Made by a program: the position numbers and the translations under genes. Source: Raillietiella orientalis (lineage: Eukaryota). Taken from it: a DNA stretch of 64,000 nucleotides. The stretch is taken from the NCBI GenBank assembly GCA_036172245.1, contig JAYWIR010000012.1, positions 2,728,001-2,792,000 on the forward strand. Reading direction: 5' to 3'. Of this stretch, positions 21,211-61,570 are shown piece after piece (the stretch's first letter is position 1; the number at the start of each line of letters is the position of its first letter). The notes beneath the pieces were generated by a model. The model was not told where the DNA came from. It ran no database searches and saw only the letters and a list, made by a program, of their open reading frames with translations.

Positions 21211-21359
21211 TCGTGAGTCCCCCTAAGGAGGAGGTTCTTGAATACTTAACAAACCCTTCTCCCTCCCCCCTCAAAAAAAGCAGATGGACATTGGTGAACG
21301 CAGGTTGATGGACGCGGGCACTATGAATAGACAGGTACGAATGACTCTTGTATTTATCC

Positions 21360-22210: not shown

Positions 22211-22214
22211 ACCC

Positions 22215-25200
22215 TGGCGTAACTGGATGAAAAAATTCTGGAGAGGAAGCAACTCGGAAGACGTGAGCTCACGAAAAACTCAAGGCACCACTCGCTTCAG
22301 GAGGATGCAATGGATCTCATAGACAAACACATCTCGATGCAATCCTCAGATAGAGAGAGAAGGTGCCGGAACCGGTAGCCACCCCAGAACCCTTCCATCA
22401 ACAGAGGGAAGGGAGGAAGATTTTTGGCAACTTCATCCCCTGGACTACTCAGACTCCAGCTCCGATGGAACGACGCAGCTCTTTTCACTTAGCTCGAAGT
22501 TTTCCCTGAGGGCACTTCCCATTACAATGATCTCTTTGACTGCATCCTTGCTGCGCCTGTTGTATGTAACCTTTTAGTCCGAACTAGCCAGGTCCTTTGG
22601 TCCTCGATTTGTCATGATCCAAAGAATATTCCTCTTGTTCTCGTTTCGTCTTTGCATGGAATACGCAATGCCTTCAGTCGGGGAACAAGTGGTTTCCGGG
22701 GAAACCTGTGTGTGGCGCGCAAGTATCAGATCCAAGTCAGAGCCGAAGGGGAGACCATCTCCTTCCTCTTCCTATCGACCGCCGATGAGTGTGCAGTCTT
22801 CCCTTCCCTTCCCTGCTCTCCAGTCAGTTGCTCCCTTTTCCGAAACAAGCCTTCAACCCCTATCCATCCCATGAATTCCTCTTCACCCTCTTGACGAGGG
22901 ACACGGAGGTCAATGACTGCTGCTCTGAAGGCGTGCGAACGTCTGTTTCCGCCTTGATTAGCCGGCGTCTTTCATCCTTTCTCCCTCCTTCTGGCCGAAG
23001 ACAGGAGCGATCCTGGAAATCTCTTTCCGTGGTTCAAGGTCGCTCGAAAAGGGGAAGGCCGCGTGAACGGAACGTGCCCTACCGTTCCCTGGCGGCCTGT
23101 CTCAGGTCTCGCTCACTGTCCGCTTGCCAGGAAGGAAGGAACCCGGACATGCCTGCGGCGGCGACAGCACCTGGTTCCAAGCAAGTCTCCGCTACTGCTC
23201 ACAGGAAACCCGGGCGAAACGACCGGATGCTAACCAAGGACAGCGGATCCCGCACGCACCGGAAGCTTCCTGCTGATGCGACCGCCGCGCTATTTATAGC
23301 TTCGTCTCCTTCCCTGCTTTCGGTGGAAACTCCAGAAACGACGCTCTCCATCATGCGCTAAGCAGCTCCGCAGCATCCTGAAGGCTGGATGGCGGTTCGA
23401 GAGACACGAAAAGCGCGCACGAGAGGAGCAGGTTCGCCGGGACGTGTCCAGTCTAGGAGTGCCTGGGAGGGCCACGGCGGCGTCAGGTGAGGAAAAACCT
23501 CCAGCTCCGCCGGAAAGGACCAGTCCGGAACTGCAGCGAATTCGGGGATCGGACGGAAACGAAAAAGCGGTCGGCAAGAAATTCATCCCCCGTTTCATCT
23601 CCTTCAGATTTCCCGGGAAGGCCCTACGAAAACCAACGCAGAGGTCCGCCAGCACGTGCTGGCGCAAGCCCCCTTCCGTTTGGAGCGCGCACTTCGCTCC
23701 CTTCCAGCGACAGGTGACGCGAGTTTCGCCTGCCAGAAGGCCCGTCTCTTCCCCTTGGATTCAAACACCCTCGCGGTGCTGAGACGAGCCCTCCCCAAAT
23801 ATCCGGGCCAAGCGAACTCCTCTAGGGAGCAGGAGGGATTCCACAGGAGGCTCGTGAAAGGAACCCCTTCCCCTCAATTCCCCAGCCAAGACCAGTAGGA
23901 GGAGACGTACTGACCTCTCGCTCTCTTGGTGGTTTGCTGTCCGGAGTGATTTCCGTATCGTCGATTCCTCTGACGTGCTGTTGGATGGGGAAAGAAGGCG
24001 ACAAAGAATGGAGAAATTGAAAGCTCAGAACAGGAGGCGCCGAAGACCCGCGCACACAACAGAGGAAAGGTGTGCCTAAGAAGAATCGAGGTGGACTTGC
24101 GATCGATTAACCGTGCCCAAGGGCTGCCCGCAAAGGAACCTTCGCCACACATGGCACTCCGCCCCGATCTCGCCGGAGAACTCGCTGCCACCATCACAAG
24201 GTGAAGACGGCCGCGGCTCCAGGGGCGAGTTCGCTCCCACGAGTCCTCTCCCCCCCCGTACACACGCACCGCCACGACCCTCCTCTTTCCTTCCTTCCTT
24301 CCTCCTCCTTTCCTACTCGCTCCAGCCTGCCGTGTCCTCCCGACGACGATGGAACGCCCTTAGGCAGCGACGGACGCGCGTCCTGGCGGGCCGGGTGCGG
24401 TCGTCGTGGACCCGACACTCGAGCGACACCCGTCTTCCCCGGCTGCCCCGTCCCTCTGCACTCGACGACCGACGCCTTCCGCGGGACCTGGCGAGCGGCG
24501 TGCAGGGACGTCTCTGGGACGCACGCGCGGATCCGCCAGAGCGAGGTCCAGGCTTCTCGCGAGTCGGCTGTCTCGCCCGTCTGGAGTCGAGGAGCAGGTC
24601 GAGGTCGTTTGGACCCCGAGGTCTCGGGCGATTTGCCCCGCGGAAGGAGACTGCGTTTAGCCCTTCCTTCCCGGCGAGTTCCCGCCTTCCCAGTGGCGAA
24701 TTCGGAGGGAACCAGCAGCCACCTGGTGGTTCGGCTCGTCTTTGAGTCCCAGCAAGACCGTCTCGATTCTGCTGCATCTATGAGTGGCTCACGTGTTCTT
24801 CCAGAGATCCCGCAACTGCCAGTTCTCCGCTGGGAGCTGCTCGGTCACGTGGATAATCACGGATGCAATTCGTGACTCGCTGAATGGGAGTGTGGAATGC
24901 CGTTCCGACGTCGCTCCCCCTCCCCCCTCCATGTTTCCTGAACAGAAGTGCGTTCGCAGCAAAGCGCCGCCTTTCGGATCTGGGTTCTATTTTTAGACCT
25001 CCATGCAACGAGAGGGACATCCTCTCTCGTGCGTTCTCTCGCCAGCTGGCCCGATCGGTTCGTCTTGAGCAAACGAAAAGCGGAGAGAGAGCTCCCTCGA
25101 GGCGCGCTCACGGCCGTCTCTCCATTCCCCTGGACGCGGAGCGCGAGGACGCCCTCCCGTCGCGCTGCGTAGTCCCTGAACGCGTTGCGGATTCCGGTTG

Positions 25201-25400
25201 TGACGCCGTTCCGTTGCTGTGCACAATACGAATCCGCAGCAACGAAACCGCGACTTAAGCAGGCAGCGTCTTTCTTCCGTTGCGACGGACTTTTGCTCAG
25301 GGGATGAACGCTCCGAGGAACACGCACGCACCCTGGAAGGACGTCCGGGCGATCCTAGAAGGACGCGAGAGCAAACTCTGAGGCTTGGAGGAAGAGAAAA
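22215..25400 (-). mobile_element. Decayed Tx1-like LINE (ORF1, ORF1/ORF2 junction, EN, start of RT); hosts repeat copy 1
   Basis: Minus strand in order: LSRGFV...NGVTTGIR...RSGQLARE (ORF 24857..25327; ORF1 GV.TG.R and a knuckle remnant); RVVAVRVYG..LHLVMV..STSILLR (EN start, ORF 23874..24275); LADL..FRRAFP..RLD (ORF 23290..23667); NGKCPQG (~22520); GYRFRHLLSL (ORF 22297..22488, NYRPISLL-like). Confidence 0.6.
24181..24734 (+). repeat. ~555 bp near-identical dispersed repeat, copy 1
   Basis: Matches 58152-58713 directly and 60353-60909 as reverse complement; contains (TTCC)4. Confidence 0.97.
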
Positions 25401-25469
25401 CCACCGGCGCGAGCGTGCGGCGGTGGAACACCGCGTCTTGGATTTACAAGATCCCCTCCAGGGATGTTG

Positions 25470-26230
25470 GGCGTCGGCGGTCGCGTGGCTGTAGCCTCTG
25501 AGAGTGGTGTCAAGAGTTGCGGATTTGAATACCACCCGAGGGAAGGAATCGACGCTGAGAACGGGGGTTGCGCCGTTAGTTTCAAGTCGTCCCTCAGGAT
25601 GATGCAGTGGGTTGGCTCCGAGTATGGTGGCACGGGCGGAAGACGGAAACCCCTGGATGCTCCCGCTGACCGGCCGGGATTAGAAGTCGACCGTCCGAGC
25701 TCTTTTCAAAACATCAACGAGCCGATTCTCTTCGGTGTTTCCCTTCGGTTGTGAAGATGGAGCTGTTACCATGAAGCAGGTTGATACTCCCTTGGTGGAG
25801 TTGCCCCTCCTGAGTATAAGTAACGCGATGCTCCCTTCGGGGTCTTCAGAGGAGGAGGAAGCCAGGAGTGGATCCTTTCCTGGTTCTTTCTGGAGAAGAA
25901 ACGAAAGGTGACCCACTCCAGGGGTCCCTCCGAAGAGGATACGGAAGAGGCTCCCTTCGGGGTTCCCTTCCCAAGCGTGAGAAGAACGGATTCTTTCCTC
26001 TGGAGCTTTCCTGGATTCATGGGGTGGTTCTCTCCCAGGCACCCCTAGCTTGAAGAGTTAACACGTACCCTCGGGTGGCATGGGCAGAGTTAAAGAGCTC
26101 CGTGGCCTCTCCTCCCTCCCATTGAAGAGGCGAATGGACCAAAAAGAAGACAGCCAGAGTTGTTTGGGGTCGACTCTGAGTGGGAGGCTGAAAAGTCATG
26201 GGGGAAGCTGAATCTGGAAGAAGCGGCAGG
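25470..26230 (+). mobile_element. tRNA-headed SINE-like element, copy B (degenerate B-box)
   Basis: gagttgcggatttgaatacc (~25514-25533) aligns with the gcgggttcgaatccc head. Shared body blocks include taccatgaagcaggttgatac, ggagctttcctggattcat and accctcgggtggc. Confidence 0.75.
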
Positions 26231-27544
26231 CATTCAAGAAACATCGTTGCCCCTGACTTCCCGTGCAACTTTGCCAGATCTGCCAGCCTGGATCTTTTCC
26301 ACTGCCAGCTGTGCTCTTCCAGAAACTTAAAAAAAAAAAATCTCTTCCTTCTTGAAGGACGGATGCCCTTTTTTTTCCTTTCACGAGAGGACGGCCCCCG
26401 CGTGGGCCCAGACCTCTCTCTCGGACGAGCACAGGTGGAAGCGGGTGTTCCCGTGCACACAGCTCCTTCCGATCTTCCCTCTTCCATGTCCCCATGGCCG
26501 GCCGCTTCGTCTCTCCGGTTGGGTTTCCCTTCTGAACGTTGCATCCGGCGAAGGACGGTAAGATGCTGCTGCTGTTGCTGCTGCTGCCCGCCCAATTCGG
26601 GTGCCGTAACCGCCGAGGCGCTGCCGGATCCAGGATCCCTCAGAACTCTCCCGAAACGGAACGGTTCTTCTTCCCGTGGGAAAAGTGTGAGGGGAGGGGG
26701 GGGGAGGCCCTTCCCCGCAAACAGCACGCGACGACGGATGGCGGTTTCCCCGTTCCGCTGACAGGCGGAGCAGATCACTCCGTCACTGTCTCTCCCTGCG
26801 CATCATTCTCGTCTCCCAGAGCTCCCCCCGCTTTGTTTTCCTCAGCGCCTTTGACAAAAAAGGAAAAGAGAAAAAAACCGTGGTTCCCTACCGGGACGGT
26901 CTCTTTGTTGTCCCCGAAGCTCGAGGGATCGATTGTCCCCTTCAAAGAAAGTTTTCCAGGAACTGTTAATTCACCTCCTTCTTCACGCGAGATGCGGAGG
27001 TTGTTGCAAGGCTGCCATCATCTGTGAAGGGGAAATCGAGATGCCGGGTCCCGGTGAGACATCCCTGCGCGGACCGCCTGATACGCGACCAGCTGGAGAG
27101 AGGTGCATTCTTCCCTCCCCCCCATTCCCCAGATCTGCATCCGATGCAAGAGTGGATCCAGGGGGATCCGTCGCAGCTGACCCCTTAGGAAGCGCATGGA
27201 CCCCGGAGCTGCCTTCGAGGCCAACAAACACGAAGCCTGATTCCCTTCCGCGTCCGGGCTAAGCAGCCCGGGAAGGGGCAGATAAATCCTCGTGGGTTCT
27301 TGCGGGAAGCACGACCTCGAAGAACCCGCAGTCTCAGAGGACAGAGGAACGGCGGTTGTGCGATGCCCACGAACGCGAGGGGATCCTCGCATCCTCGGCG
27401 ACCTTCCCTCGCTCATCCGCTTTGCATCTGCATGCGCGCAGGAGTGGGTGGTGAGGTTTGCGGATGCTGTGCGGCTAGGTCAGAGCGGACCGCGTGATGA
27501 CTGCACGGAGGCGGAGGTGGAATTGGTCGTCGACTTATAGGATA

Positions 27545-28170
27545 CGGGAGCGGCAGCACTGGTTGAAGTCGGAAACTGGATGACCACGTTGACTGGTCGG
27601 GACTCGAAATTGACCCTCCGGGGCCCTGCCAGGACATCAACGGGCCAGTTTCCTTCGGAGTTCCCCGCCGGCAGCGAAAAGGGAGCCGTTACCATGGAGC
27701 TGGTTGATACCCCTTCGGGAGTTGCCTCTCCAGAGTGTCAAGAAGCAATCTGCTCCCTTCCTGAGGAGGAGTAAACAAGGAGGGCTTCCGTTAAAGGTGT
27801 CCTTCGAAGAAGAATTTCTGGGAGCGCATCTTTTCCGGTTTCCCTTCGGGGAAGAAATGAGGAGTGACGCTCTTCGTGGAGTCGTAAGAGGAACGGACGC
27901 CTTCCTCCGGAGCTTTCCTGGATTCATAGGATGGTCCCCTCCCGGAACATCCTCTAACCTGAAGAGTTGCACGCGAGCCAAAAAAAATGGAAGACAATCA
28001 GAGATGTTCGGGGTCGACTCTCAGTGGGAGGCTGAAGAATCGTGGGGGAATCTGAGTCTGGAAGCGGCAGACGGAGCCTTCCTGGATTCATAGAGTGGTC
28101 CTCACGAGGTTGCTGCCTCACTTGAAGAGTCATACGCACCCTCGGGTGGAGTCGACAGTGTTTGAAGAGT
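27545..28170 (+). mobile_element. SINE-like element, copy C (no recognisable head; internal duplication)
   Basis: Shared body blocks taccatggagctggttgatacccc and caccctcgggtgg; ttcctggattcatag occurs twice (27915-27929 and 28079-28093). Confidence 0.75.
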
Positions 28171-28289
28171 TTGATGTATCCAGGAGAGATGAGGTTCGAA
28201 TCAAAGCCTCCCAGTCGCTCTGTGAAGTGCCATCTGGGAGGGGGAGGAGGAGGAAGGGGAAGAGGAAGAGATTAAGTGCCATTCCTGGT

Positions 28290-28470
28290 ACCTCAGGAGG
28301 GTACCACCGTATGAATCCGGGAAGGCTCTGGAGGAAGATGTCTGTTTCTATTAGGCTTGGAAAGGGAACCCCTCTTCCTTCTTCTCTCCGGAGGGACTTC
28401 TCGGAGGGAGCCACTCTTCATTTTTTCTCCAGAGAGAACCCGGAAAGGATGCGCACCCGGAACTTCTGCC
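28290..28470 (-). mobile_element. SINE-like family body fragment in inverted orientation
   Basis: Reverse complement reads gcgcatcctttccgggttctc...gaaaaaatgaagagtggc...ttcctccagagccttcccggattcat, matching 27825-27930 and 21020-21170. Confidence 0.7.
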
Positions 28471-28559
28471 AGACTACTTTTCTGCGGAATGGATGCGAGA
28501 AAGATGCAAATTTTTCTCTGATGAGGGATGGCATCTGTCGGAACTCCCATTCCTCTTCT

Positions 28560-31500
28560 TCCCAAAGTTGCCCGGAAACGCATCTTGTCCCGGGAGGCGA
28601 GCCCCGCTTCCCGTGGAGCAAAGGAAGCGATCTATTGCTCCTTTCCTTTAATCAAAAGCTGCGGGATCTGCAGAGTATTTGGACGCTGCGGGTGCTGCTT
28701 CACCAGCAGAAACAGTGATGAAAGGCCTTGAGGAGATTTTCAAACCGAACGGCGAGTTGTCGAATTCGAAGGTCCCCTCTGCGTTCGACCGTGACAAGGT
28801 CACTCGGATCTTCGCGGGAGTGACCAAGCAGCAAAAATGACTGGAAACCGGAAAGTGCAGTGTAACGACTGAGAAGACACAGTTTATCGGATGCTTGGAT
28901 CAGTGGATAAGCGAAAGACAGTAAGTAACGAAGTGTTAAACAAAGGGCACATGGGGGGAGAAAGGGCATTGCGTCTCGATGACACCCAGAAATCATTCAG
29001 CTGAGGCCTTTTCGGTCCACCTCCACGTCGACGGACTCTGCTCAACGAAGATACTTTGACATTTTTGGTGGAAGCTCAACAATGGAAAGTCCAAAATGCT
29101 TCGTCACCAGTTCCTTGGGAACGTCACAGCCCTTGGGATCCTAAGGTGGTGCTGCATCTGAGTTGTCATTCTTCTTCCCCGTCTAAAAAAGAGATGGCGC
29201 CAGAAAGAAAGAACCCACCAATCCCGATGGCTCGAAGACCGACCCAAAGGTTGCGGACTATCAGGAGAGGATCTGAGGGAACTCCTCGAGGGGAAGGACT
29301 CCGCCCAACCGTACAATCGAAAAATCCGCATGCTGGTACGGCAGGTCCCCTTTGCTACTCAGATCGAGGTTAAATCCATACTACTGGAAAGAGATCCGAG
29401 AAACAACCTGAGGAAGCAGGAAAACGGAGTCTGCGTGCACAGCGAGAGATTTCAGCAGCTTCCGCGAGTGTTTCCATTGTTCTTTCTTGCTCCTCTTCAC
29501 TCCCCCTAAGGATGCCATGGTTCTGCCGAGGAGCAAAGAAGCTTCGTCCTTGATTTCCAGGTCTCAGAAGGAACCGAACCACGGAGGAAGGGGGGGGGAG
29601 GGGGGGAGAGTTTTGTGAGGTGACACGGAAAGCACGGGATTCCCGTGAAGATGGCCGAACTGAACCCAAGCTTTCTGAAGGAGGAATCACTCACGTGCCT
29701 CCTCGAGCGTCTTTTGATGCTCAGCTCTCATGCATTCCGCCGATAATCTCCCTCCTCCTCTTTGTCTTCCCTACCCTTTTTGCCTTCCTGAACCAGTGAC
29801 GACTTCTCTTCCCATCCATCGCTGAGGATGCCTATTTTTTTTCCGGCTTCCCATTAGGAAGACCGTCTGGCTCACTCGAGCAACGGTGCTATCGATTCTG
29901 TTGCTAAACGGGAACGCAAAGAGGAAGCTCAAGTGACGTAGAGTTGCCTTGCCAAACTTTGTCCGGGATTATGGGTTTCCAAACTCTGAGACCATTCATC
30001 TCAGATACGTCTGCCTGGGATCGAGCTCTGAACACCGCGTCTCCATGCACCCCTGGCCTGCTCTTGCTCGAGTGCGAAGGCATGCCTCATCATTCCGATA
30101 GCAATGGAGAGGCGTCCAGAAGAGTATCCTTTGCCAAAAAAACAACGAAAATTTGACGCACCGAATGAAAAGACTTGGAACACGATCAAGAGGTTCGGAT
30201 CACGTGACACTTTCCGTTCTGGAGTGTCGCTCGGTTTGCACGCTCCTCGTCCCACCGTTCCTCTTCAGCGCTTTTGGGACCTACGATGCAGGAGCCTCAT
30301 GAGGTGTCCAGAATTGCAACCTCAGCCTGCTGTTGCAGTAGATTCATCCATGCATCCAGTGGATGCATCTCCTCTCTGTGCCTGAGCGCTGGAAGGGATC
30401 ACCCGTTCTTTTAGCGCTCAGACGAAAACTCCTGTGATCGATACCTCTCGTGACTTGGAAAGCCTTCATTATCCCGAAAAGACAAGGAAGCGGATGAGGG
30501 TGCCTGACGAGACGTTTTCTTTTTTCTGTTCGCTTTTCTATTTTTCCTGAGAATACCCATCGATCTTGGGGCCATTAGAAGCTGGCGCTGGCAGCGTGCC
30601 CTATCATGTCGGCAAGACGGAGACTTGCATCTTCAAGAGGATTTCCTGGACTGGCCCTGCAGCTTCCCCTCGGTTACCGCAGGCTTCTGGCGGATGGCTG
30701 TGCGACAGCAAGTAGGATGTAGCTCCCTTGCGACGTCAGTTTGCTGCAAGAAAGCGAACAGGAAGGTGACTGCGAGCACGGCCTGCGGGCAGTTCCTCAC
30801 GGTCCCTCGCGACTCTCTCCTCGGCGGCATCCAGTCCAGCATCGGCGGCGTGCTGAACAGCTGATGGACGACGATGCCAGAAGTCACCTGCGGCAGAGAC
30901 TACCTTTGGCGGCGTCTTCCAAATACACTCGCTCCCTACCTCCTTGGAATTGTTCCTGCAGAGAACCAAAGAATCCAGCCGCCCTGCACTTCGTTCGGGA
31001 ATGCTGTTGAACCGTGGATTGCTCTAGTCTGACACATCTTCTCCTGAAAATGCCCACATTGGCGGCCGTGTGGCGACGCCCTCCATGCATGAAGCGTTGC
31101 GGGTTCGAATCCCGCCTGGGAGAGGATCGACGCCGAGAACGTGGGGTGCGTCGCGTGATTTCGAGTCATCCCTGCAGGACGATGCTGGTTGGCCTGCAGG
31201 CTTCGGGTGGTGGAAGCCGGAAACCGGGTGTCACTGTTGATTGACCGGAATTTAAAGTTGACCCTTCGTGGTCCTGCCAGGAATCAAGGAGCCGTTTCCT
31301 TCGGGCTTCCCCCCGGTTCTGAGAATGGAACCATACCCTGGAGCTGGTTGGTACTCCCCTCGGGGGTGGCCCCTCTAGAACGTTAAGTCCGCTGCTCCCT
31401 TCGCGGAGCGCCCTTCAGAGACGTTTGAAAGCGTCCCTTGGGAGTACTCTTCAGGGAAGGAAACAGGGAGAGGATCCTTCCCGGGTTCTCTTCGGATACA

Positions 31501-32140
31501 ACCAGGAGAGGGTTCCTTTTGAGGTTCCCCACGAAGAGCAAGAGAGAAACGGACTCCTTCCTCCAAAGCTGTGCTGGATTCATCGGATATCAATCACCCG
31601 CTGTAACTTAGAGTTAGAAGCACCCTCGGATGGCGTGGACAGCCTTTGTCAGATCCTCCTAAGGAAGTGAACAGTTCTCTCGCATTTGGCGAACCAAAAA
31701 AAAAAAAAAGGAGAAAGAAAAAGCTGGAAGGAAAGCGGCGAAAACAGAACCCAAAAGAATTTCAATAGCAACCTATCCCGATCACGGCACGCTGTTTCTC
31801 CCTTGCCCCATGGCTGCCCTCCTTGAATAATGCAAAGGACAACGTAATCCAGGCAAGGTAGAAAGTGATGTGCTGCACAGCAGCAGCAATGACGGAGCTT
31901 CTGGGTAGGTGGGCAACTCGGGAGGTGACGGATACATACTCCGAGTATCCCACCCCACGGACTCGTACGCTGGGGAGAGCTGCTCAACATCCCTCCGGAG
32001 GGAGTGAAGTGACCCCCAGATTGACGATTGACGGGAGCTGACATTGCTGGCGGTGCATGAGGGAATCCCGTGAAAAACGCACCTTCACCAGTGGACACGG
32101 GGAAGCGCGGACGTTCAGTGCGACAGAAGAAGAAGACCCT
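28560..32140 (-). mobile_element. Decayed LINE ORF2 (EN to RT), interrupted by SINE copy D
   Basis: Minus strand in order: SVALNVRAS (~32125, EN start); VVSAAGDFW (~30890, GDFN-like); LEQEQARGAWRR (~30060, linker); and an RT-like stretch in ORF 28700..28996. Confidence 0.6.
31055..31710 (+). mobile_element. tRNA-headed SINE-like element, copy D (most complete: A-box, B-box, poly-A)
   Basis: A-box-like tggcggccgtgtgg at ~31060-31073, B-box GGTTCGAATCC at 31102-31112, shared body, and an ending aacc plus A-run at ~31696-31709. Confidence 0.85.
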
Positions 32141-32768
32141 CCCGCACCTGCTGTTGGACTATGTGCTGCCCTCCGACCCCTTTGGGATCGCCTTGCGACG
32201 ATCCTAGGAATCCCGGAGGGCGGTTCCAGGGACATTTCCAAGCGCCTCTTGATGAGTGGTACCGCACTGCCGCCATCCGCGTGCGTCCCTCGCAGTTCTC
32301 TGCGGTCTCTGCGGGATCGTCACGGTCTGCAACGAGGGAAGAAGAGGCGGAAATGGCAGGGACGCCATCCGCTGAGCCAAGATCTTCGTGAAGACCGTCT
32401 CGAGATGACCCCACCTGGGCGTTATACGGACGGAACTTGCCAGCATCCTGAACGGGATGCAGTGGACGCCTGGCAGAGTACTGTGATCCCTCCCTTCCCC
32501 GTGTAAGAATTCCTCTCGCCTGTTTGTGCGTTTATTTTTATTTTTATTTTTTGTTTTCTCCTCCCCCACGCTGCTGAAGCGGACCTCGTCGGTCTGCTCA
32601 CCGCTCTTCTGCAGGTTCCTTGCGTGTGGCAGAACCAAGGGTTCCTCCACACCAATGTATTTTCATTACCTTATGTAAGAGATGTCCTGGAATAACTGGG
32701 TGATAATCTTCAATAGTAATGATCTCCTCGTGAGGTCCCTACTGGCCTCTACAAAAAAAAAAAAAAAG
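32140..32768 (+). mobile_element. 5'-truncated LINE 3' end, same family as 13600-14175
   Basis: CAALRPLWDRLATILGIPEGG closely matches CAALRPPWDCLATILGIPEGS at 13650-13710. Shared ggatgcag.gga.gcctggcag block, then a T-rich UTR and an A-run at ~32753-32767. Confidence 0.88.
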
Positions 32769-33399
32769 AGCTGGAGGCATTTTGCTTGGAGAAACGGATT
32801 CATAGCATCTGACACGCTTTGGTGAAGAGGAGCAGACCGCATCAATGGATGTACATTCCTCAAGAAAACAGAAAGAAAATGGGAAGATGATGAAAGTACA
32901 TCAGTTGGTTCCAGATGCAGCAGGCAAAGGCAGCGAATGGTCCAAAAGTGAACTCACGACCTGCACAGGATGCAATGCACTGACGCCGATGCTAAAGTCC
33001 TCTCTAATAAACGGCCGTTGCTCAAGCCACGCGGTCTCTGGATTTCTTGATCATAAACAGAAGCCTGCTCCTGTCAGCGTCTCTGAGGTGCATGGGAAAG
33101 GATTCTGCAACCAGGATACGTGAGAATCAGTTTGGAGTGAATCTGGAAAAAAGAAGGCAAGGGAGCTGGAGTTCACGGACACACCTGAGACAGCTTGAGT
33201 ATAAGTTATCTTACCGGACCTCCCTCCGCCTCCATAGCAACACCGACTTGGGCTCTGAAACAAGTGGTAGGGTTCCTGGGATCCAAAGATCGACAAGGAT
33301 GGATCAGAGAACTGGAGGTCCCTCGCACTCAGATAAAACATCTAGAAATGTACTAGACACCGAACATGTACTAGATACACCTTTTGGATCACCAGCCAG

Positions 33400-36300: not shown

Positions 36301-36485
36301 GTGATCCCTTCCGTGCTCCCAGAGTTTCTTTTTTATCCTCATTTTTGTTTGTCCCCCCCCCTCTCCACAGCCGGAGCGAACCTCACTGGTCTGCGTGCTG
36401 GTTACTTGGCAGGTGCCGAATATTTTCGGACGATTGTAGGGCCAATGGACGTACATTTGTAATTTTATCATTTTTATAATAAACG
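33400..36485 (+). mobile_element. Decayed LINE ORF2 (EN remnant, RT remnant, zf-RVT, 3' UTR); possibly composite
   Basis: PTWTG (~33635); QLTEKNREIL (~33930); LLLFPKGKK (~34160); FVFGR (~34335); LVVNRDQERKA (~34590); PLSVVLF (~34840); LHWGLSCNAR...NCYRCWERESLPHLLIYC (ORF 35871..36236); AATAAA at 36478-36483. Confidence 0.72.
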
Positions 36486-46199: not shown

Positions 46200-46640
46200 G
46201 GCGCTTGACAAGTTCCCCCCACACACACACCGGCTGGTGCTCATCGGCTACCCCCCCTCCCCGCAGGCGCATGGTGGTGTGTGTAGGCGGGTGTAGGGAT
46301 GGCTCCAGCATCCACGGCGCCCTATTCCCGTGGGAGATGCGTCGGCAGCCAGGAACGGAACGTGAGGGCGTCGCGCAGTGAAAGACGCTTTCAAACGTCT
46401 CTGGGGTTGCCGCAGGAGGTTCCAAGGATCGCGGCAAAGCACCCTCAAAGGGGCCAGAGGGCAACACAGTTCACGAGGAGGTGCGGGAGGGATTCCCGCT
46501 CACCGCACCTGCCATAGTTTGGATCCACCCCCACCTCCTGTGTCCAATGATGCCAGCGGGCGTTGTACGCGAGTCCCCAGTGCAGCAGCATCAACGCTGA
46601 CTCCTGCCACTTCAAAGGGAGGGTGTGGGTGTCTATGAGC
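46200..46640 (-). mobile_element. LINE 3' fragment (zf-RVT), closely related to 35870-36100
   Basis: LLHWGLAYNARWHHWTQE...PNYGRCGERESLPHLLVNCVALWPL (ORF 46445..46642). Confidence 0.85.
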
Positions 46641-47014
46641 ACCGGGGGTCACTTCAGGTCTTCCTCTGGAATACTCAGTAGCACGCTCCAGTGCAAAAGT
46701 TCATGGGGTAGAGCAATCGGGGTCGCAGCGTCGGTGAGCTGGCCCGTCGTCCACTCGCCCAGCCCTTTCCTCCTTCAGGAGATTTCCACAGTAACCCCCC
46801 ATCTAGTCGTAAGGCTGCTGCCCGTGTGTTCCCTAAGGGAGGGCAGCGCGGCGGCGAGGGAAGTTCTGCTTGTCTACGCACTCTTCCATGGATCCTCCAG
46901 GATCTCCCGGAGCGGGCAGTTGTTACGAGCGTACTGGAAACGTGGCACCTGTTCTGCGCTTGGCTCCTGGATCCTCGCCCACGTGCGAACGGTTTCCTGC
47001 AACCAGGCACTACA

Positions 47015-47646
47015 GTTTGCGGGTGCGGCACTGATGAAAGCCAGAAACTGGATGCTCCCGTTAATCGGCCAGGATTGGAAGCTGGCCCTTCTGGGTCCTT
47101 CCAGGAATCAAAGAGCTGGTTCACTTCAGGGTTTCCCTACGGTTGTGGAAATGGACCCATCCTCCTCACCTTCAGGAATACCCTCTATCTCGTACCATGG
47201 AGCTGGTGGATCGATACCTCTCCAGAGTGTGAATGAGTGCACTGTTCCCTTTGGGGAGAGCCCATGAGAGGAAATTTGGAAGCGTTTTTTCGGGGTTCTC
47301 TTCAGAGGAGGAAAACAGGAGCGGTTCCCATGCGGGTCCCCTCTGGAAAAGAAATTCCCGGAGAGGAATTCCTTTCCTGGTTCCCTTCGAAGAAACGAGA
47401 AGCGACCCCTACGGTGGTCCACCCGCAGAGAACAAGGAAAAGTCCTCCAAAGCGTAAGAGGAACGGACTCTTTCCTCCGGAGCCTTCCTTGACCCTTTTC
47501 CTCCGGGGTCCCTCTGGGATTGTTCCCTAGCTTGAAGAGTCGACAGGCACCCTCGGGTGGCGTGGATAGTGTTTAAGAGCCCTATGATTCTCTCCTTCTG
47601 AGGAGGCGGACGGTTCTTCAGCACTCAGTAAACCAAGAAAAAAAGG
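47015..47646 (+). mobile_element. SINE-like element, copy E (no recognisable head; A-rich tail)
   Basis: Shared blocks gaaactggatgctcccg, ccaggaatcaa, taccatggagctgg, ccaaagcgtaagaggaacgga and caccctcgggtggcgtgga; ends aaccaagaaaaaaa. Confidence 0.8.
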
Positions 47647-53599: not shown

Positions 53600-55285
53600 C
53601 TTTTTATGGCCAAGCTGGTGAAGCGACGCCAAGAATACTCGCGCTGATAGTCGTGCGAATGGCGAACCCCCGAGGCCATACCTCGGCGAGATGGGGATGA
53701 TTTCGTTTGGCTCAGAAGGCGGAAGTAGTAAAACATTGAAAAGGTCATGCTGATTTCTTTCCAAACCTAGCAGTAGGAAATAGCCCAGGTGAGAGAACAG
53801 GCGACAGTCTGCTTTCCAAGACACCATCTGGAACAATCTTCTTCCCGTCACGGACAAACCCAAAGTTACAGCTTCAAGGAACTGGAAAAACAAAGGGTGA
53901 AATCAAAACGTACCAGTGCCACCCAAGAGAAGAAGACGGTTGCGGGATAAAGATGCTGGAGCCTACGGTTAGCATCCTTCCCGTTCTCCAACTCCCTAAC
54001 GTGGCATACAAATGGGAGTACTGTGGCCCTGCATGATGCACAGGGTGTGCATTCCAAATGAATCAGTGTGGTTCTGGAGGACTGGCAGTATCTACATTAA
54101 AGGGGAAGAAAGGTCGCACGCCTGTCAGGAATCGGCAGTACAAGACGGAATCCGCCCCCCCTCCTAGCACGACAAGGCGGACCCTTGTATGTGCAACAAC
54201 AGTACCCAGTTATGAGAAACCTCTTTAGAGTGGCCTCCCAAAACGAGGAAGCGGGAGGAAAAGAGCTTTCCGAAGTGATCCCATTCTTCTTCCTTGTGCC
54301 TGGGTCTTCGGCAGAAGAACTGGAAATGAGCAACAACCGAACTAAAAAATGGGTGTGGGGACGGTGGTGGCGCCCACCAAGTGCGTCAGCGCGCACGCGA
54401 AATTGGGATGCGCGTGACACACAAAACGCGCCAGTTGTACCGAAAGACCAAAAGGTCAAACGGTTCGGCCAACGAAATCTGGACCAGACCACCGCAGGAA
54501 GCCCTGGGCAGAGGTGGAATGGTCTTCAATCGCCGAGACGCCAACCCTGTGGCAGTTCGGACAACTCCTGAGAAGTATGACCTGCCCCCGGAGATGCAAA
54601 ACGACCTCTTCATGGTGTCTCCCCCACCCACCCATGGGCAGTTCTTGTGTGAGACCATGCAAGAGAACAAGTTCTACCGATATTTATCATTCGGTACCGT
54701 CTGTTCTTGCCCACATTTACAGAAGATGGATTCTGCAGGAAGGGAGAGTGGGCATTCTACGTTAGTCCACTCGCAGAGCTCTGGATCCACGTCGGGAATC
54801 AGCGGGGCGGTGTAAATGACTTTCAGGAGAAGGCTGGACAGGATAGCCCCGAGGGGGCTGCTAGAAGGAAAGGGAAAGAGCTCGTCGGTGCGATTCCCAT
54901 GGTGAAGACGGCCATCTCCCTCCCCATCGGCACGGATCCCAGCAAGGAGGAGTAACCCGCGAAGAGGCGGCCTACACATGGGCCAGGGCCGCTGCGATGG
55001 GACTGCCGAAGGAAAGAAACCGGACGTCGGAGGATGCAGCAGAGTCCCCACGCATCCACCTGCCGTTACATCCTGGGGGGGGGGACCCAAGACGCATTCC
55101 AGCACGTAGCCAATCATCCTCAGAGCGACGCATGACGCAACGGTCGTAAACATGGAAAGAACCGGTGCAGGATGGCAGGAGGGCGCGCTCCCGTGCGACG
55201 TTCCCAGGGAGCAGTTTGTTTTATTGTTTTTGTTGCTCGTTGTCTGCCCTTCCTTTGTTCTAATTAATTTGTGGATAAATAAACT
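53600..55285 (+). mobile_element. Probable decayed LINE ORF2 C-terminal half + 3' UTR
   Basis: DTIWNN...RNWKNKG (~53820-53897), and a T-rich tail ending in AATAAA at 55278-55283 like other LINE ends here. Weak. Confidence 0.3.
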
Positions 55286-56399
55286 ACCCCGCCACTTGTC
55301 AGGCTGGGGAAAGCGAAGGGCGGAAGCCAAATTCCCATAGGAGGGCTCCACTTCTGACCCGAGTGCAAAGACCCTTGGAGAGGGAAAGGAGGAGAGGCAG
55401 AAAGGAGGTGCGAGCACGCCCGCAGTCTACGGGGGGCTAGGGCGTGCGTAGGGCAGCGCCTGGTGAAGGAGCGTCCGGAAACTCCGGCGCAGGTCCAAGG
55501 CGAAGCTGGAGGGCGAGCAGGGCTGTGGTAGCCGTGGCGACCGAGGGAAGCGAGCCCGAGAAGAAGGGGCAACAAATCGAGGAAGCCAACATCTCAGCTG
55601 CTGCCTTCGTTTCGGCACGTTTGCCTGCTTGAAGGAGCTTCGCTACCTCTGGCGAAGAATCGGAGGGACAGGGAGGACAAATCGGGAGGACAAGGCGAAA
55701 TGCTTCCTCCTTCCAGCACGAGGAGGACTGAAAGGTGGGAGGGGGGAAAGAAACCTCACCTCATCCAGAGCGAGCACGGAGCCGCTGATAGAACCGACCG
55801 TTTCCGAGTTCCTACGGGAAGCGAAGCCAGCCGGGAGGCTGCGTCTTCTTCCTCACTGAAGTGGTTCATCACTTTCAGTGCTTGAGGGGTTATCAAGGAA
55901 TAACCGCCGCGCTCTCCCGCGCTCCAGGCAGGCTGCAGGGGTGACACGGCACTTCAAACTGAGGAAGGCGTCACCTCCTCTTGAGACATGATGTGGCAGG
56001 GAGTAGGAGAATGGGAAGGGAACAAAACGGCGACCTCGCAGAGACGTCGCCATGGCGCCGGAGGACTCTCGTATCCGCGAAGCCTTCGATTCCCCGGTTA
56101 AGCCCGATGATGATGATCGAACTGGCAACGCGAGATGTTTTTTTTTTTTTTTTGCTCCTCTTGGAGAATTCTTTGGCTTGGAAGATCACGGGGATGGGAC
56201 AATCGCGGGGGCGGCGGCTCAGGAGGGGGAAACAGAAAACTCCCAAAAGAGATCATGCGGATCAGAAAAGCCCCGTGCGCTCATCGTATTGCCCCTTGCG
56301 CGCAGCATCTTCCCGAATCCTCACGTTGAGGGACCGGGATCTCTCGGGAAGAGGGAGGCGACGCGGCAGGAGTTTCAAGGGAGGTCTGCTGATCCGTCA

Positions 56400-59300
56400 T
56401 GACGACTCGCCTCTGGCGCTCGCTGGACCTCTCCTTCAGTTTCCTCTCGAATCCACCGCCTGAATCCTCCGGCTTCTTTATGCCGAGCGACTCCAAAAGG
56501 TACTGAGGGAGTGGAAAGGCACTAGGGGAAGGAGTCTTCGCAGCATTCCCGATTCTTCCCGGATTTCCCTTCCCATATGTGAGAGGAAGTTGCAAGAGAA
56601 GTGCGTCAAAGAGCAGTCTAGCCGAGAACGCCCTGAGGTGGTTCCTCCGTGGTCCTTGGGCCGAGTTTCTGTGACCCCTGTAAGCGAATTCGGGTGGGGG
56701 TCTCTCCTGTTTTTCGGATCCCGGATCTCGTTTTCAGGGAGCAGGGTCATCTCCTCCATCAGCAAGTCCCGGAAGGGATCGGCATGGCTCGGATCGGATC
56801 CTTCCTCCTGGTGATTATTTTGTTTTTTATGCCTCCTGCAGGCGGGAGTCGACTCGAGCATTCCTGGGATGCGGGCCCCGAAAGCGGTTCTCCGCTCCAG
56901 CGCTCACGCTCTCGAGGAAATTTCCCTTCTACCTGCGAAGATCTCGTGGAGCACTGACCTTCTGAAATGGCAGCTCTCGTCTCCACCCCCCGGGACGGGA
57001 AAGCGTTCGGCTCTTCGCCTCGATGGTCCGCCGCAACCCAGCGAAAGTTCCTCTGGAAGGAAGAGGAGAGGAGCAGCTTTCAGATGAAGAATCTCTTCGA
57101 CACTTTTGACGATACTGTTGACTCCTCTTTGCCGCTTCCGACGGAAGGTTCTTCTTCGCTCTGGAGGTTCGCAAGCGGCACTCAGGATGATCTTCTTCTT
57201 GGACACCGAGGGTCGGATCGCTCTTCTTCGTCCAGCAGCATGCAGCCGGCCTCCCAGTTTGAGGCTTCTTTTTTTTAGCCGATCCTCCACCTCCCCTCAC
57301 TCGCGTTTTTCACTATTCGCTGTTCTCTTTCCCTCTGCGATAAAAAGAACCCTCCCGTTCTTGTCAGCTTAGCGAGTGATGCACCACCCTCTGGCGGTCG
57401 GTGCACGAAACTACTGCGCGGAACTGGAAGAGACGCTCAGAGCTCGCTTCCCTTTCCATCAAGGGACGGCCACCGATCGGTAGTGCTGCTGAGATCGGTC
57501 CAGCACCCTCGCTTCACGGGAGTAGAGCCACCCAGCGACGCCGAGGTTCTCCAGTAGGAGAACTCGTGCCTTTGAGCAAGACATTTGATCTTAGGAAACC
57601 CCTAGGCATTCACCTGCAGCTCCTAAGATTCCGGTCTGTCCCCTTATATCTCGAGAAGAGGCATCAGAATCCACAATGGATCCGAACTCGCAAATTATTT
57701 GCACAGGCATCCTTCCTTTGCATTCGTCGCGATTTCATCTTGCTGGATTGCTAGATCACAGGCAGGCCGCTGCAACGCTTGCAAAACAATCCGACTTTTC
57801 AGTCCTTCAACCTTGTAGGTTTTCGAAATTTTCCAGGCCCCTTCCGGGTGCCTCCTGTGTTCGAGGTGCATCCTTTCCCCCATCATCTGCTGGATAGTCT
57901 TCCACCAGCCAGAGACCCGGAACCGTCTATGTGGCCGCTTCCCTGCCTGCAAAGGACGATCCCACCTTGTAAGCACGAACAACGGAGTTTCCTTCAGGAC
58001 CTCTACGGAGCCGTCCCGTTGCTCCCTTAGTTTCCACTTGTCGACGGGTGGCTCCTTTCCTTCTAGGCACTGCGACCGATTGACTCCTGACCAAAAGCAG
58101 CAGCTTCGTAAGCTCTCCCCTCGCATGAGGCTTTAAGATCTTTCCAGAAAGCTCGCTGCCACCATCACAAGGTGAAGACGGCCGCGGCTCCAGGGGCGAG
58201 TTCGCTCCCACGAGTCCTCTCCCCCCCCGTACACGCGCACCGCCACGACCCTCCTCTTTCCTTCCTTCCTTCCTTCCTTCCTCCTCCTTTCCTACTCGCT
58301 CCAGCCTGCCGTGTCCTCCCGACGACGACGGAACGCCCTTAGGCAGCGACGGACGCGCGTCCTGGCGGGCCGGGTGCGGTCGTCGTGGACCCGACACTCG
58401 AGCGACACCCGTCTTCCCCGGCTGCCCCGTCCCTCTGCACTCGACGACCGACGCCTTCCGCGGGACCTGGCGAGCGGCGTGCAGGGACGTCTCTGGGACG
58501 CACGCGCGGATCCGCCAGAGCGAGGTCCAGGCTTCTCGCGAGTCGGCTGTCTCGCCCGTCTGGAGTCGAGGAGCAGGTCGAGGTCGTTTGGACCCCGAGG
58601 TCTCGTGCGATTTGCCCCGCGGAAGGAGACTGCGTTTAGCCCTTCCTTCCCGGCGAGTTCCTGCTATCCTAGCGGCGACTTCGGAGGGAACCAGCAGCCA
58701 CCTGGTGGTTCGGTTCGTGAACAGCATGGATTGCCATAACTCTTCTTGAACGCGCTCCGGGAAGATCCGAGGGTTCTCACCGACCGACTTTCACTGCCGC
58801 TGACACCTGACCTCAGTCCTCGCAGGCAGCGAACAGCCTTGGATTCGGAACACCAAGGAGGGAGAGCCGTGCTGTGCTTCCGGCAGGTCGGTCAGCTCTC
58901 CAGGTCGCTGCCAACGAACCGTGGCTAACATCACGTCACGTGTTCAGGCGAGGGTACACGTTAGTCTGCGTTCGTGTGGACAGCGACCACGCGAACTCGC
59001 GCCTTCTAGGCTTGTCGAGTTCCCGACGACGGAAAAAATCGTTTCCCTCAATGCAGCCTGCACTCTCCCGAAGTCCGATGGGGGGTCACTGGGGGCCACT
59101 CTGAGTGCAAACGGCACGTGTGACACGCACCTCCTTTCCTTTTATTTCTTCGCTTTTCCCACGCGTCACCACCAGGGCGCCACGTTGAGGGTACTGCGGC
59201 ATCATCACAGGGCACTCTTTCGCAGCTGCTGTAAAGCTGCGTTTTGGTCCCCGTGCCCATTTGCGGGAACCCGAGAAAATGACGAAGTGGGGAGGACCGA

Positions 59301-59450
59301 AAAGCTTTATGGGAGTGGATAAAATTGATTTCCGTGCAATCTCCATGGAGAGTGCTCTGCTTTGTCTTTATGTCCCTGGTCACGGAGCATCCCGTGTTTC
59401 GTGTGAGACTCTTTGATGCGCCACATGCATTTGCAGTCGCGTGTAGCATG
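56400..59450 (-). mobile_element. Decayed Tx1-like LINE (ORF1, junction, EN, linker, RT start); hosts repeat copy 2
   Basis: Minus strand in order: GTGTKTQL...GACHTCR (ORF 59048..59479); CFWSG and EGAWKISK (ORF 57695..58126, G.WKLN-like); SKARVLLLE (~57560); FLPEELS...FPVPGG (ORF 56904..57290); MTLLPENEIRDPKNRR..PNSL (ORF 56478..56861, ITLLPK..D.KNWRPISL-like). Confidence 0.7.
58152..58713 (+). repeat. ~560 bp near-identical dispersed repeat, copy 2
   Basis: Direct match to 24181-24734; contains (TTCC)6. Confidence 0.97.
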
Positions 59451-59559
59451 GGGGAGGGGAGGGGTCGAAGGTTTTTCAAATGAGTGCCGCTGGTCTTCCC
59501 GGGATCATTAATTACATCCCTATTCTTCTTATTTTTTTTATCCCTCCCTCCGATTGAGC

Positions 59560-61570
59560 TGAAATTATGGTTCCGGCATCACGCGACCTCGCGAAGAGGA
59601 GGTCGGGGAGTCTGGCGTGCCTGGTCTGCAGCCCTCCTTCTGGTCTTTCAATGATTATCCCGTTTAGGGGATCGAAATCAATTGCTCTGCGGGTTCCAGA
59701 TCTCTGGGAATCGGAGCGCCTGGGGGCGGGTGGAAGACGGGATCGCGTGGCTACCGAGGGAGCGTTTCGAGCGGGAAGTCGCAGCGGTCGCAGGTCCCAC
59801 CTCAAGGCAGCTTCTTCTTCGGAAACACCGCAAGGATTCCATGGTTCTCCGGATAAGGTGGTCTATGCTGCCGCTTCTGGACGTGGCTCTGTCCGCGCAC
59901 CGATCGTGGCAATGCGCACTGGAATGGCCGGAGTCTCGCGCTTCCTCTTGCATTCAGTGTGGCGCCCAGTGACTCCCCATCGGGCAAGAGGAAGGGACCG
60001 AGTTGGGATTCCTCGTTCATGGTTTGTGCACCGGGGTGACCTCGGCCATTCGAGCCCAGGCACGGGTGACTTCGAGTGCCCGGTGGAAGCAAAGAAAAAA
60101 AGGAGAGGAGGTGCATGTCGCCCCGCGTCGGCGTGCCTGGGAGCTTGGAAGACGAGCCCTACAACTCATCCTCTGGGTTGGGTCGGCTACTGAGATGACA
60201 GATCTAAATTTCTCCGAATCTCTTTGGTGACTGGGCGCCAAGAAGATGCGATCCAGGGAACACGATGAGCCGTATCAGGCCGGCCAGGACAAGACCAGAG
60301 GGACCTCTGATATGCATCCACAGCGCTGCAGCATGAGACAGAGGAGCGAAAGACCACCAGGTGGCTGTTGGTTCCCTCCGAATTCGCCACTGGGATAGCG
60401 GGAACTCTCTGGGAAGGAAGGGCTAAACGCAATCTTCTCCCGCGGAGCAAATCGCCCGAGACCTCGGGGTCCAAACGACCTCGACCTGCTCCTCGACTCC
60501 AGACGGGCGAGACAGCCGACTCGCGAGAAGCCTGGACCTCGCTCTGGCGGATCCGCGCGTGCGTCCCAGAGACGTCCCTGCACGCCGCTCGCCAGGTCCC
60601 GCGGAAGGCGTCGGTCGTCGAGGGCAGAGGGACGGGGCAGCCGGGGAAGACGGGTGTCGCTCGAGTGTCGGGTCCACGACGACCGCACCCGGCCCGCCAG
60701 GACGCGCGTCCGTCGCTGCCTAAGGGCGTTCCGTCGTCGTCGGGAGGACACGGCAGGCTGGAGCGAGTAGGAAAGGAGGAGGAAGGAAGGAAGGAAGGAA
60801 GGAAAGAGGAGGGTCGTGGCGGTGCGCGTGCACAGGGGGGAAGAGAACCCGTGGGGGCGAACTCGCCCCTGGAGCCGCGGCCGTCTTCACTTCGTGGTGG
60901 TGGCAGCGAACTTTCCGGCGAGATTGGACGGAGGTCACATGTGGAGGATTTCTACGCCATGAGTGGTTCCGTTCTTTGTGCACTCTTGAGGGGTCCTTTG
61001 GAAGCTCCTTGCTCCTGCGCGCCTTCAGTCCAGACTGCACGTGACCGACGCGTTGACGACAAACGCGATGCGTGAGGCACGTAATAGCGGATGCATTCCC
61101 TCCTGTTTGGTGGATGAACGTCTCCAGTAAAACGTGTTACCCCCCACCCCTCCTCCCTATTCTATGTCGGCGCTATGGATTCTGAAGGACTCGGCAGCTG
61201 CCGTCTCCTAAGAGCGCATCGGTACGATGCTGGATGCTCGATGTATCCGCGAGATGCGGAATGCTCCGAGGCTTCCAGCTGAGTATGCCAGGATCCGGAG
61301 TGCCGTCGACCGGAGCAAGGCCTAACCGGGATTGCAGTCCAGAATAGTGGTCAAGTTTTTGCGGGGAAGTTGGAGTGGAGAACCCCGGGCCGAAAGCGTG
61401 GAGGTCCGCAACAAGGTGGGGCGAACCTGACCGACTGCCACGTCTCGAAGCTGGCAGCGACCAGCCGCGGCGCTGAAGTGGCTCTGGCGCTGTCCGCGCA
61501 CCTGTCACGGCCAGGTGTCGAGGCCTCCGAATGACGCGCCATCTAGAAGAGGATGCGCTAGTCTACCTGC
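59560..61570 (+). mobile_element. Decayed Tx1-like LINE (ORF1, junction, EN); hosts repeat copy 3
   Basis: ORF 59567..60193 has PDKVVYAAASGRGSV...GIPRSWFV..GDLGH (GQPR.C..CG..GH-like), then GEEVHVA. After the repeat come RVVAVRV..LHFVVV, GSSLLLR and GLRMTRHLEED (~61525, G.WrlN..L-like). Confidence 0.65.
60353..60909 (-). repeat. ~555 bp near-identical dispersed repeat, copy 3 (inverted)
   Basis: Reverse complement of copies 1 and 2; (GGAA)6 at 60781-60804. Confidence 0.97.

Follow-up and report, generated by a model that had tools for sequence, protein, structure and literature searches.

A near-identical GC-rich core in three copies in Raillietiella orientalis DNA: a candidate case of non-allelic gene conversion

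Three copies of a GC-rich core

A GC-rich stretch of ~0.55 kb is present as three scattered copies in a 64,000-nt stretch of Raillietiella orientalis DNA (the window; GCA_036172245.1, contig JAYWIR010000012.1, positions 2,728,001-2,792,000, forward strand), and we judge the chances to be about even that it is a homogenised, GC-rich island produced by non-allelic gene conversion acting repeatedly on a few old local duplicates. The copies were detected by a repeat search and self-BLAST of the window, and their strict cores were delimited by anchor search to 24182-24730 (c1, + strand), 58153-58709 (c2, + strand), and 60353-60909 (c3, - strand, inverted relative to c1 and c2). Identity was 96.0% across 582 bp for c1 and c2, 95.5% across 572 bp for c2 and c3, and 93.6% across 592 bp for c1 and c3, and the three near-identical copies reported in an earlier sequence-only reading of this DNA are present where it had placed them. 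The remaining 26 self-BLAST pairs of at least 100 bp in the window were all ≤75.0% identical. The core is much closer between copies than its surroundings are, as the same reading had claimed. A profile search of the window with nhmmer returned no copy of the core that was older and more diverged. As arms of 572 nt, c2 and c3 are 95% complementary to each other, with 1643 nt between them, and c1 sits 34 kb from this pair. The GC content of the core is 67-68% and its CpG observed/expected ratio 1.10-1.11, compared with 55-60% and 0.87-0.98 in the five flanks. All comparisons of the core rest on these three copies, which lie inside the one 64-kb window.

Differences within the core

Alignment of c1 with c2 revealed 9 substitutions and an 8-bp length change in a (TTCC)n microsatellite, which is exactly the count given in the sequence-only reading. 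Its further observation that three of the substitutions fall early and six cluster near one edge was also upheld: the former are at alignment columns 179, 273, and 550, and the latter lie inside 18 bp at columns 606-623. The (TTCC)n run lies near 24287-24303 in c1, at 58258-58293 in c2, and at 60769-60804 in c3 (where it reads as (GGAA)n), and the run of c1 is the shorter by 8 bp. Private substitutions number 4 in c1, 5 in c2 (4 of them inside 58662-58679), and 17 in c3, where 16 of the 17 are in the outer parts. Because 15 of these 17 are transitions, the c3-private changes appear to be real mutations and not sequencing noise. The c3 state at these sites is A/T at 10 and G/C at 7, and there is thus no GC bias.

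Across all three copies, the 549 ungapped columns contain 26 variable sites, and their distribution is uneven: the 83 columns at the left edge hold 10 and the 104 at the right edge hold 14, so that 24 of the 26 lie in the outer parts, whereas the 362 columns between them hold 2. The mean distance of the variable sites from the centre was not matched in any of 200,000 permutations, and the longest invariant run extends over 167 columns (P=0.0016). The central near-identical tract corresponds to 58236-58605 in c2, 24265-24626 in c1, and 60826-60457 in c3; its two private changes are at column 273 (in c1) and column 383 (in c3), in addition to the 8-bp microsatellite difference. This crowding of the variable sites at the edges is new relative to the earlier reading. 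Further, the relationship between copies changes along the core: c1 and c2 disagree at a single one of the 83 left-hand sites but at 7 of the 104 right-hand ones, 6 of these inside 18 bp, which is a short mosaic tract. Concerted evolution is usually proved by incongruence with the orthologue tree or by polymorphism shared between paralogs; the differences described here are non-uniform and mosaic in their spread, as expected of a concerted-evolution island.

Core edges, flanks, and the LINE reading

The sequence-only reading had described the similarity as fading outward without sharp ends, and this holds for the left side (in the orientation of the core) but not for the right. In local alignments of the 150-bp left flanks, compared with 1000 shuffles, similarity was significant for c1 and c2 (P=0.005) and for c1 and c3 (P=0.001). 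The fade-out zone of c1 (24098-24181, + strand) is weakly colinear with 58071-58152 of c2, and its final ~35 bp also with 60910-60943 of c3, so leftward similarity beyond the core spans about 35-85 bp. On the right, all three copies end fairly sharply at columns 653-662, whereas the left end is variable. The motif 'ggctca.cgtgttc', reported as common to two copies, is at chance level (P=0.21) and lies at different offsets in them.

Further out, one old patch is common to c2 and c3. It lies in the spacer between them at 58982-59124 (+ strand), 264 bp beyond the end of the c2 core, and has inverted homology to 59933-60084 (- strand) on the c3 side of the spacer, 269 bp beyond the end of the c3 core (nhmmer E 9e-5; blastn 79% over 53 bp; translated E 1.6e-5). 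Its convincing part is 59075-59110 versus 59948-59983, in which 32 of 36 bases are identical. Because this old inverted homology lies 264/269 bp past the core ends, the c2 and c3 arms appear to be older than the identity of the cores implies. Past ~85 bp, neither nhmmer at the DNA level nor composition-corrected translated BLAST related the flanks of c1 to those of c2 and c3, and no pair showed a near-diagonal 6-mer excess over 1.5-kb flanks (z -1.6 to +1.1). The proposal that the flanks are homologous positions of one family is borne out for c2 and c3, by one short patch at matched offset, and not for c1. Likewise, the core is more alike than homologous flanks on the spacer side of c2 and c3 and over the ~35-85 bp to the left of all copies, but this comparison does not extend further out for c1.

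The sequence-only reading had assigned the copies to Tx1-like LINEs, at the junction of ORF1 and ORF2, and our Pfam scans (stops as X, three frames), in which very decayed remnants might go undetected, lend this no support. No Exo_endo_phos or RVT family matched at E≤1 in the ~3.1-3.2 kb downstream of c1, c2, and c3 in LINE sense, which speaks against the remnants of an endonuclease start said to lie directly downstream, and nothing credible for an ORF1 domain was found at E≤1 in the 2.1 kb upstream of c1 or on either strand of the whole c2-c3 spacer. Taken together, the scans covered the left and outer flanks and the spacer in both orientations and the right flank of c1 in LINE sense; at E≤1 they yielded no endonuclease, reverse-transcriptase, or ORF1 domain, whether within 2.3-3.2 kb to either side of c1, outward of c2 and c3, or in the spacer. 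The peptides GVTTGIR, GACHTC, and GIPRSWFV..GDLGH, read as ORF1 remnants, do occur in the translations but match no ORF1, endonuclease, or reverse-transcriptase profile. Only one LINE trace was present in the window, at 21345-21716 (+ strand), where zf-RVT matched weakly. It belongs to a different old repeat; neither it nor repeat X-Y, likewise old and LINE-like, is colinear with the cores.

We therefore consider it barely credible that cDNA-templated repair or a homing-like process has copied a young cassette into dead Tx1-like LINEs at their ORF1/ORF2 junction. Such a cassette would agree with the real contrast between core and flanks and with the one old patch common to c2 and c3, but no LINE coding remnant was detected in the scanned flanks, in LINE sense or in the reverse orientation where this was covered, the c1 flanks are not homologous to those of the other copies, and the cassette neither encodes an endonuclease nor bears poly(A) or another cDNA hallmark. 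Nothing argues in favour of cDNA templating or homing.

Proposed gene conversion and the alternatives

Among the mechanisms put forward in the sequence-only reading, ectopic gene conversion fits best, as the edge-clustered differences and the mosaic 18-bp cluster are in keeping with it. The three cores may be the visible remains of old local duplicates that form a small family, in which c2 and c3 would be the arms of an old inverted duplication of ~1 kb per side and c1 a member 34 kb off, and the likeness of this family would have been upheld by repeated non-allelic (ectopic) conversion. Because conversion tracts must start and stop in sequence that is still similar, the middle of the core would be overwritten most and its edges least, and the homogenised domain would contract with time into an island. 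Here, identity is ~99.5% over the central ~370 bp, ~88-93% over the outer 80-100 bp, and 55-75% over some tens of bp, beyond which there is none. GC-biased repair would account for the GC content of the island exceeding that of its surroundings. We found no support for a LINE as the ancestral unit.

Non-allelic gene conversion is itself a known process, and we infer that it has acted here, repeatedly, as the homogenising force. Several observations argue for this: core identity far above that of other repeats in the window, differences crowded at the edges, a left edge that fades, the old inverted homology of c2 and c3, the GC and CpG contrast of the core, and the transition-rich changes of c3. 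Against it, the homology of the old flanks is confined to c2 and c3 and to one short patch, with nothing beyond ~85 bp for c1, and GC bias is absent at the c3-private sites. Further, the right end, shared and fairly sharp, resembles a conversion gradient less than it does the terminus of a unit that was inserted or duplicated.

That right end, common to all three copies where the left end varies, would suit a younger interspersed element, e.g. a non-autonomous retroposon or LINE 3' end (with c1 and c2 on the + strand) that has a common 3' end, variable 5' ends, and slightly different source subfamilies. The occurrence of three copies at 94-96% identity in 64 kb where other repeats are at ≤75%, the unrelated flanks of c1, and the nhmmer search, which returned no older copy, also agree with it. 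We nevertheless regard this origin as possible but rather unlikely. Neutral decay after insertion cannot confine all but 2 of the 26 differences to the outer third, weak colinear similarity of the left flanks persists beyond any common start, and the c2/c3 patch, at matched offset and orientation, demands a target preference or a longer unit. Remnants of a reverse transcriptase or endonuclease are absent next to every copy, and the hallmarks of a SINE, MITE, or solo LTR (terminal inverted repeats, TG..CA or poly(A), target-site duplications) were not seen: there is no poly(A) tract, c1 and c2, the two copies scanned for terminal inverted repeats, have none in common, and by eye there were neither TG..CA ends nor a target-site duplication at the ends tried. 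In c1 alone, 19-nt arms are located at 24082-24100 and 24752-24770, and these were equalled in 2 of 300 shuffles. The zones that carry the differences, 83 and 104 bp wide, are of short-read scale, and polishing could give the same picture: copies that are truly ~5-10% diverged throughout would have had their centre pulled to a consensus by ambiguous short reads, with flank-anchored reads keeping the outer ~100 bp. We consider such an assembly or polishing artefact unlikely, as the centre is imperfectly identical (column 273, column 383, and the microsatellite) and as copies at the divergence of the edges would still be far closer than the flanks; the artefact would explain the gradient and not the repeat.

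Purifying selection on a non-coding function, such as a promoter-like CpG-rich element or a source of hairpin RNA from c2 and c3, would also hold the centre and relax the edges, and the composition of the core and the complementary c2 and c3 arms accord with this. However, selection alone rarely keeps ~370 bp of paralogous non-coding DNA at ~99.5% beside neighbours that have decayed past alignment, the 8-bp indel lies inside the core, and we therefore hold this explanation to be very unlikely. Rfam gave no match in the window at gathering score and, at E≤1 within 57900-61100, a single chance-level match in the spacer and none in the core. On neither strand did the folding energy improve on that of shuffles (z +1.12 and +1.15), and the substitutions were too few for covariation testing; a structured non-coding RNA gene is accordingly not supported. 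A protein-coding exon of a multi-copy gene is not supported either, because the 8-bp difference shifts every frame of c1 relative to c2 and c3 and no homologs were found: no protein homolog was found for the 287-amino acid minus-strand frame, and the ORFs over the cores have no Pfam match. As the indel disrupts any common frame, near-100% identity at all sites cannot come from selection at the protein level.

Non-allelic conversion, or concerted evolution, among dispersed repeats is documented for Alu, LTR, and Ty/Tf2 elements and duplicated genes (PMC6598467; PMC8230782). Paralogs in such cases are closer than their age predicts, with patchy or mosaic differences, and conversion depends on distance and identity and is commonest for copies <10 kb apart (PMC6598467), which c2 and c3, at 1.6 kb, fit. 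The present case differs in comprising three copies known from the sequence of a single window. Palindromes and inverted repeats, e.g. on sex chromosomes, have arms kept near-identical by intrachromosomal conversion, and c2 and c3 resemble them as inverted near-identical arms with a spacer; here, however, homogenisation is limited to the outer 0.57 kb of arms that measure ~1 kb, and a third, direct copy 34 kb off is equally similar. Site-specific non-LTR elements of the Tx1 type insert at one position of another repeat and would likewise put young sequence at one position within older repeated flanks, but they have two sharp ends and their own or borrowed endonuclease and reverse-transcriptase genes, whereas neither these domains nor flank homology on both sides was found here. 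CORE-SINEs and V-SINEs share with our repeat a conserved middle and variable ends. Their central domain is conserved across families and species at moderate identity, with recognisable tRNA heads and LINE tails, whereas the core showed neither a tRNA-like feature nor a tail.

A further explanation, which we think highly improbable, is that the ~0.55-kb GC-rich, gene-less sequence is a selfish 'conversion rider' that owes its persistence, and possibly its spread from one decayed paralogous site to another, entirely to biased conversion, or that the c2/c3 pair is kept as a source of hairpin RNA; if so, the repeat would be maintained by recombination and not by transposition. If, as we prefer, conversion among old duplicates is the explanation, the locus would display a homogenised domain shrinking from its edges. 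It would gain greater weight only if many such islands were present genome-wide at equivalent positions of one old family. On the conversion reading, the locus would be a clean small example of non-allelic conversion making old duplicates seem young, which distorts estimates of repeat age based on divergence.

Core copies and their setting

The core family comprises three copies of a GC-rich core of ~0.55 kb, for which anchor motifs delimited strict cores at 24182-24730 (c1, + strand), 58153-58709 (c2, + strand), and 60353-60909 (c3, - strand), in agreement to within a few bases with the coordinates assigned by the sequence-only reading. As determined by repeat finding and self-BLAST of the window, c1 and c2 are 96.0% identical over 582 bp, c2 and c3 are 95.5% identical over 572 bp (inverted), and c1 and c3 are 93.6% identical over 592 bp (inverted). 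The remaining 26 of the 29 self-BLAST pairs showed at most 75.0% identity at lengths of at least 100 bp, and the core family is therefore conspicuous against otherwise old repeats. An nhmmer profile built from the three cores detected no additional or older copy elsewhere in the window; all results on the core family are based on three copies in one 64-kb window. Exact-match searches with two invariant central strings returned 0 loci in metagenome contigs and 0 in genome contigs. The comparison of the c2 core with sequencing runs returned only 21 rows, at 0.04 of the sampled words and with no run truly containing it, and four of those runs (X1, X7, X12, and X21) placed no reads on 57900-61100.

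The window has a GC content of 58.8%, zero N, and a CpG observed/expected ratio of 0.86, with a strong depletion of TA (0.39) and an enrichment of GA/TC (about 1.3); the GC content is 67-68% in the core versus 55-60% in the flanks. Throughout positions 1-64000, the sequence is gene-poor and GC-rich (59%), and its repeats are all old except the core family. We note that c2 and c3 together (58138-60924) form 572-nt inverted arms that are 95% complementary and separated by a spacer of 1643 nt, and, if transcribed, these arms could give a long hairpin RNA.

Other identities of the core were considered. A non-coding RNA was not supported: the core had no match in Rfam and its folding energy was no better than that of shuffled sequences (z of +1.12 and +1.15 for the two strands). 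Nor was a protein-coding core supported: an 8-bp indel disrupts every common frame; the longest core frame had no homolog and no Pfam match.

Differences within the core and its ends

The three-way alignment reproduced exactly the earlier count of nine substitutions and a (TTCC)n length change between c1 and c2, the latter being the 8-bp indel, and placed the substitutions at columns 179, 273, 550, 606, 609, 610, 614, 617, and 623. Among the three copies, 26 of the 549 ungapped core columns are variable: 10 in the left zone (columns 97-179, 83 ungapped; sides are given in core orientation), two in the center (columns 180-549, 362 ungapped), and 14 in the right zone (columns 550-653, 104 ungapped). 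Of 200,000 random placements, none gave an average distance from the center as extreme as that of the variable sites, and the longest stretch without variation spans 167 columns (P = 0.0016). The pattern shown by the core family is therefore real and clear in statistical terms. Changes private to one copy amount to 17 in c3 (15 of them transitions), five in c2, and four in c1, and the c3-private sites show no GC bias (10 A/T versus 7 G/C). Further, of the differences between c1 and c2, one falls in the left zone and seven in the right, six of the latter within 18 bp, which indicates that relatedness shifts along the core.

On the left side, similarity fades. Permissive BLAST stretches the c1/c2 match to 24098-24739 versus 58071-58718, and weak colinear similarity was found in the 150-bp left flanks of c1/c2 (P = 0.005) and c1/c3 (P = 0.001) and none in those of c2/c3 (P = 0.69; 1000 shuffles each). 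The right side has a fairly sharp break at columns 653-662 in all three copies, and similarity was above chance in no pair over the 150 bp beyond it; the motif ggctca.cgtgttc, previously taken to be shared, occurs at differing offsets between copies and does not exceed chance (P = 0.21). As regards a mobile element identity, a scan covering c1 and c2 found no terminal inverted repeat common to both, the core contains no poly(A), and no target-site duplication was seen by eye at the ends tried. In c1, 19-nt inverted arms (24082-24100 and 24752-24770; 16/19 complementary, 651 nt apart) bracket the extended unit and were equaled in only 2 of 300 shuffles, but these may be due to chance because c2 has no counterpart.

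Flanks of the core and old repeats

The sequence-only reading had placed the core, as a young patch, at the ORF1/ORF2 junction of dead Tx1-like LINEs. We searched for endonuclease, reverse-transcriptase, and ORF1-type families with Pfam at E ≤ 1, treating stop codons as X, and none was detected LINE-sense downstream of c1 (21000-24200), c2 (55000-58170), or c3 (60890-64000), LINE-sense upstream of c1 (24700-26800), on either strand of the entire c2-c3 spacer, or in the left/outer flanks in the opposite orientation (21900-24200, 55600-58170, and 60890-63460). The ORF1-like peptides quoted earlier are indeed present in the translations but are not diagnostic. For the 287 stop-to-stop ORFs in the whole window that are 110 aa or longer, Pfam gave three matches, all under curated cut-offs (zf-RVT, E = 8e-4; DUF6688, E = 0.0015; and APC_r, E = 0.0044), and no credible protein domain. 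The weak zf-RVT match at 21345-21716 (+) is the only LINE-like or retroelement trace in the window. When this ORF was compared with 1.84 billion representatives, only three weak matches were obtained, all unnamed (a tandem-repeat translation, a 207-aa zf-RVT fragment, and one without a coherent domain), and the protein search therefore provided no usable LINE reference.

The zf-RVT match is situated within X-Y, an old composite repeat that nhmmer detected at, for example, 20618-22220 and 31035-32778, with partial copies at 25450-26392, 27536-28439, 47011-47616, 62313-62719 (-), and elsewhere. Repeat X occupies 20618-21301 and 31035-31726 as well as these four partial copies; repeat Y occupies 21345-21716 (+), with related sequences at 32057-32778, 35754-36360, 13398-13967, and 46392-46583 (-), and directly follows X in two places. 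The X copies are ~65-75% identical, as in an old family, and three of them contain, ~44-64 bp into the copy, a motif that resembles a tRNA T-arm, GCGGGTTCGAATCCCGC (0-1 mismatch; three matches versus 0.34 expected). This motif suggests the decayed head of a tRNA-derived SINE. ARAGORN called no tRNA in the window. The stretch 20080-20610, immediately preceding an X copy, is purine-rich and of lower GC, with loose GATG/GACAG/ATAGA recurrences that Tandem Repeats Finder did not call. Because X, in core orientation, lies after c1 and before c3 and is absent near c2, we rejected it as part of the core's unit. With the flank scans empty and the zf-RVT repeat outside that unit, the LINE-junction framing and a LINE identity of the flanks are unsupported; any remnants may be too decayed to detect.

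The nhmmer flank queries (3 kb each; the 1.5-kb spacer for c2-c3) gave a single core-related match, 58982-59124 versus 60084-59933, inverted (E = 9e-5), which begins 264 bp and 269 bp beyond the respective core ends. In its convincing part, 32 of 36 bases are identical, a pattern that is unique within the window and arose in 0 of 100 shuffles; blastn gave 79% over 53 bp and a translated comparison E = 1.6e-5. This inverted patch at matched offsets indicates that c2 and c3 probably belong to an old inverted duplication whose two arms measure ~1 kb each and have stayed alike only over their outer 0.57 kb. Global alignment of the entire c2/c3 inner arms gave 73% identity, the same as for shuffled sequences under those gap costs, and is uninformative. 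When 6-mers near the diagonal were tested over 1.5 kb, z ranged from -1.6 to +1.1 in all six pair-by-side comparisons. The c1 flanks had no nhmmer match to the c2/c3 flanks, with nothing past the left fade, and no match by translated BLAST with composition correction, under which a c1/c2 downstream match (28% over 120 aa, E = 0.01) was lost.

Origin of the near-identity

An identity of ~99.5% over ~370 bp beside arms that are almost unalignable requires homogenization or recent copying. We give even chances to repeated non-allelic gene conversion, which would produce the edge gradient of differences and the mosaic 18-bp cluster, would accommodate the old c2/c3 arms, and would be favored by the short c2-c3 distance, as such conversion occurs most often between copies less than 10 kb apart according to PMC6598467; GC-biased repair, if operating, would also yield the GC contrast between core and flanks. 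Against conversion, the right end is sharp and common to all copies, there is no old homology around c1, and the c3-private sites lack a GC bias. Further, the zones that hold the differences are of short-read length and could be produced by polishing, which speaks for the near-identity being an artefact, an explanation we regard as unlikely.

A younger interspersed element is a rather unlikely alternative. Neutral decay after one insertion or duplication event could not have concentrated 24 of the 26 differences in the edge zones. Selection on a product could not achieve ~99.5% identity at all sites over ~370 bp, and maintenance of the core by selection is improbable. The exotic mechanisms put forward earlier, homing or cDNA templating, found no support, and we consider them very improbable. 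Overall, with conversion as the favored source, the core family is best read as a small island of concerted evolution in an old repeat, arising by a process that is already known.
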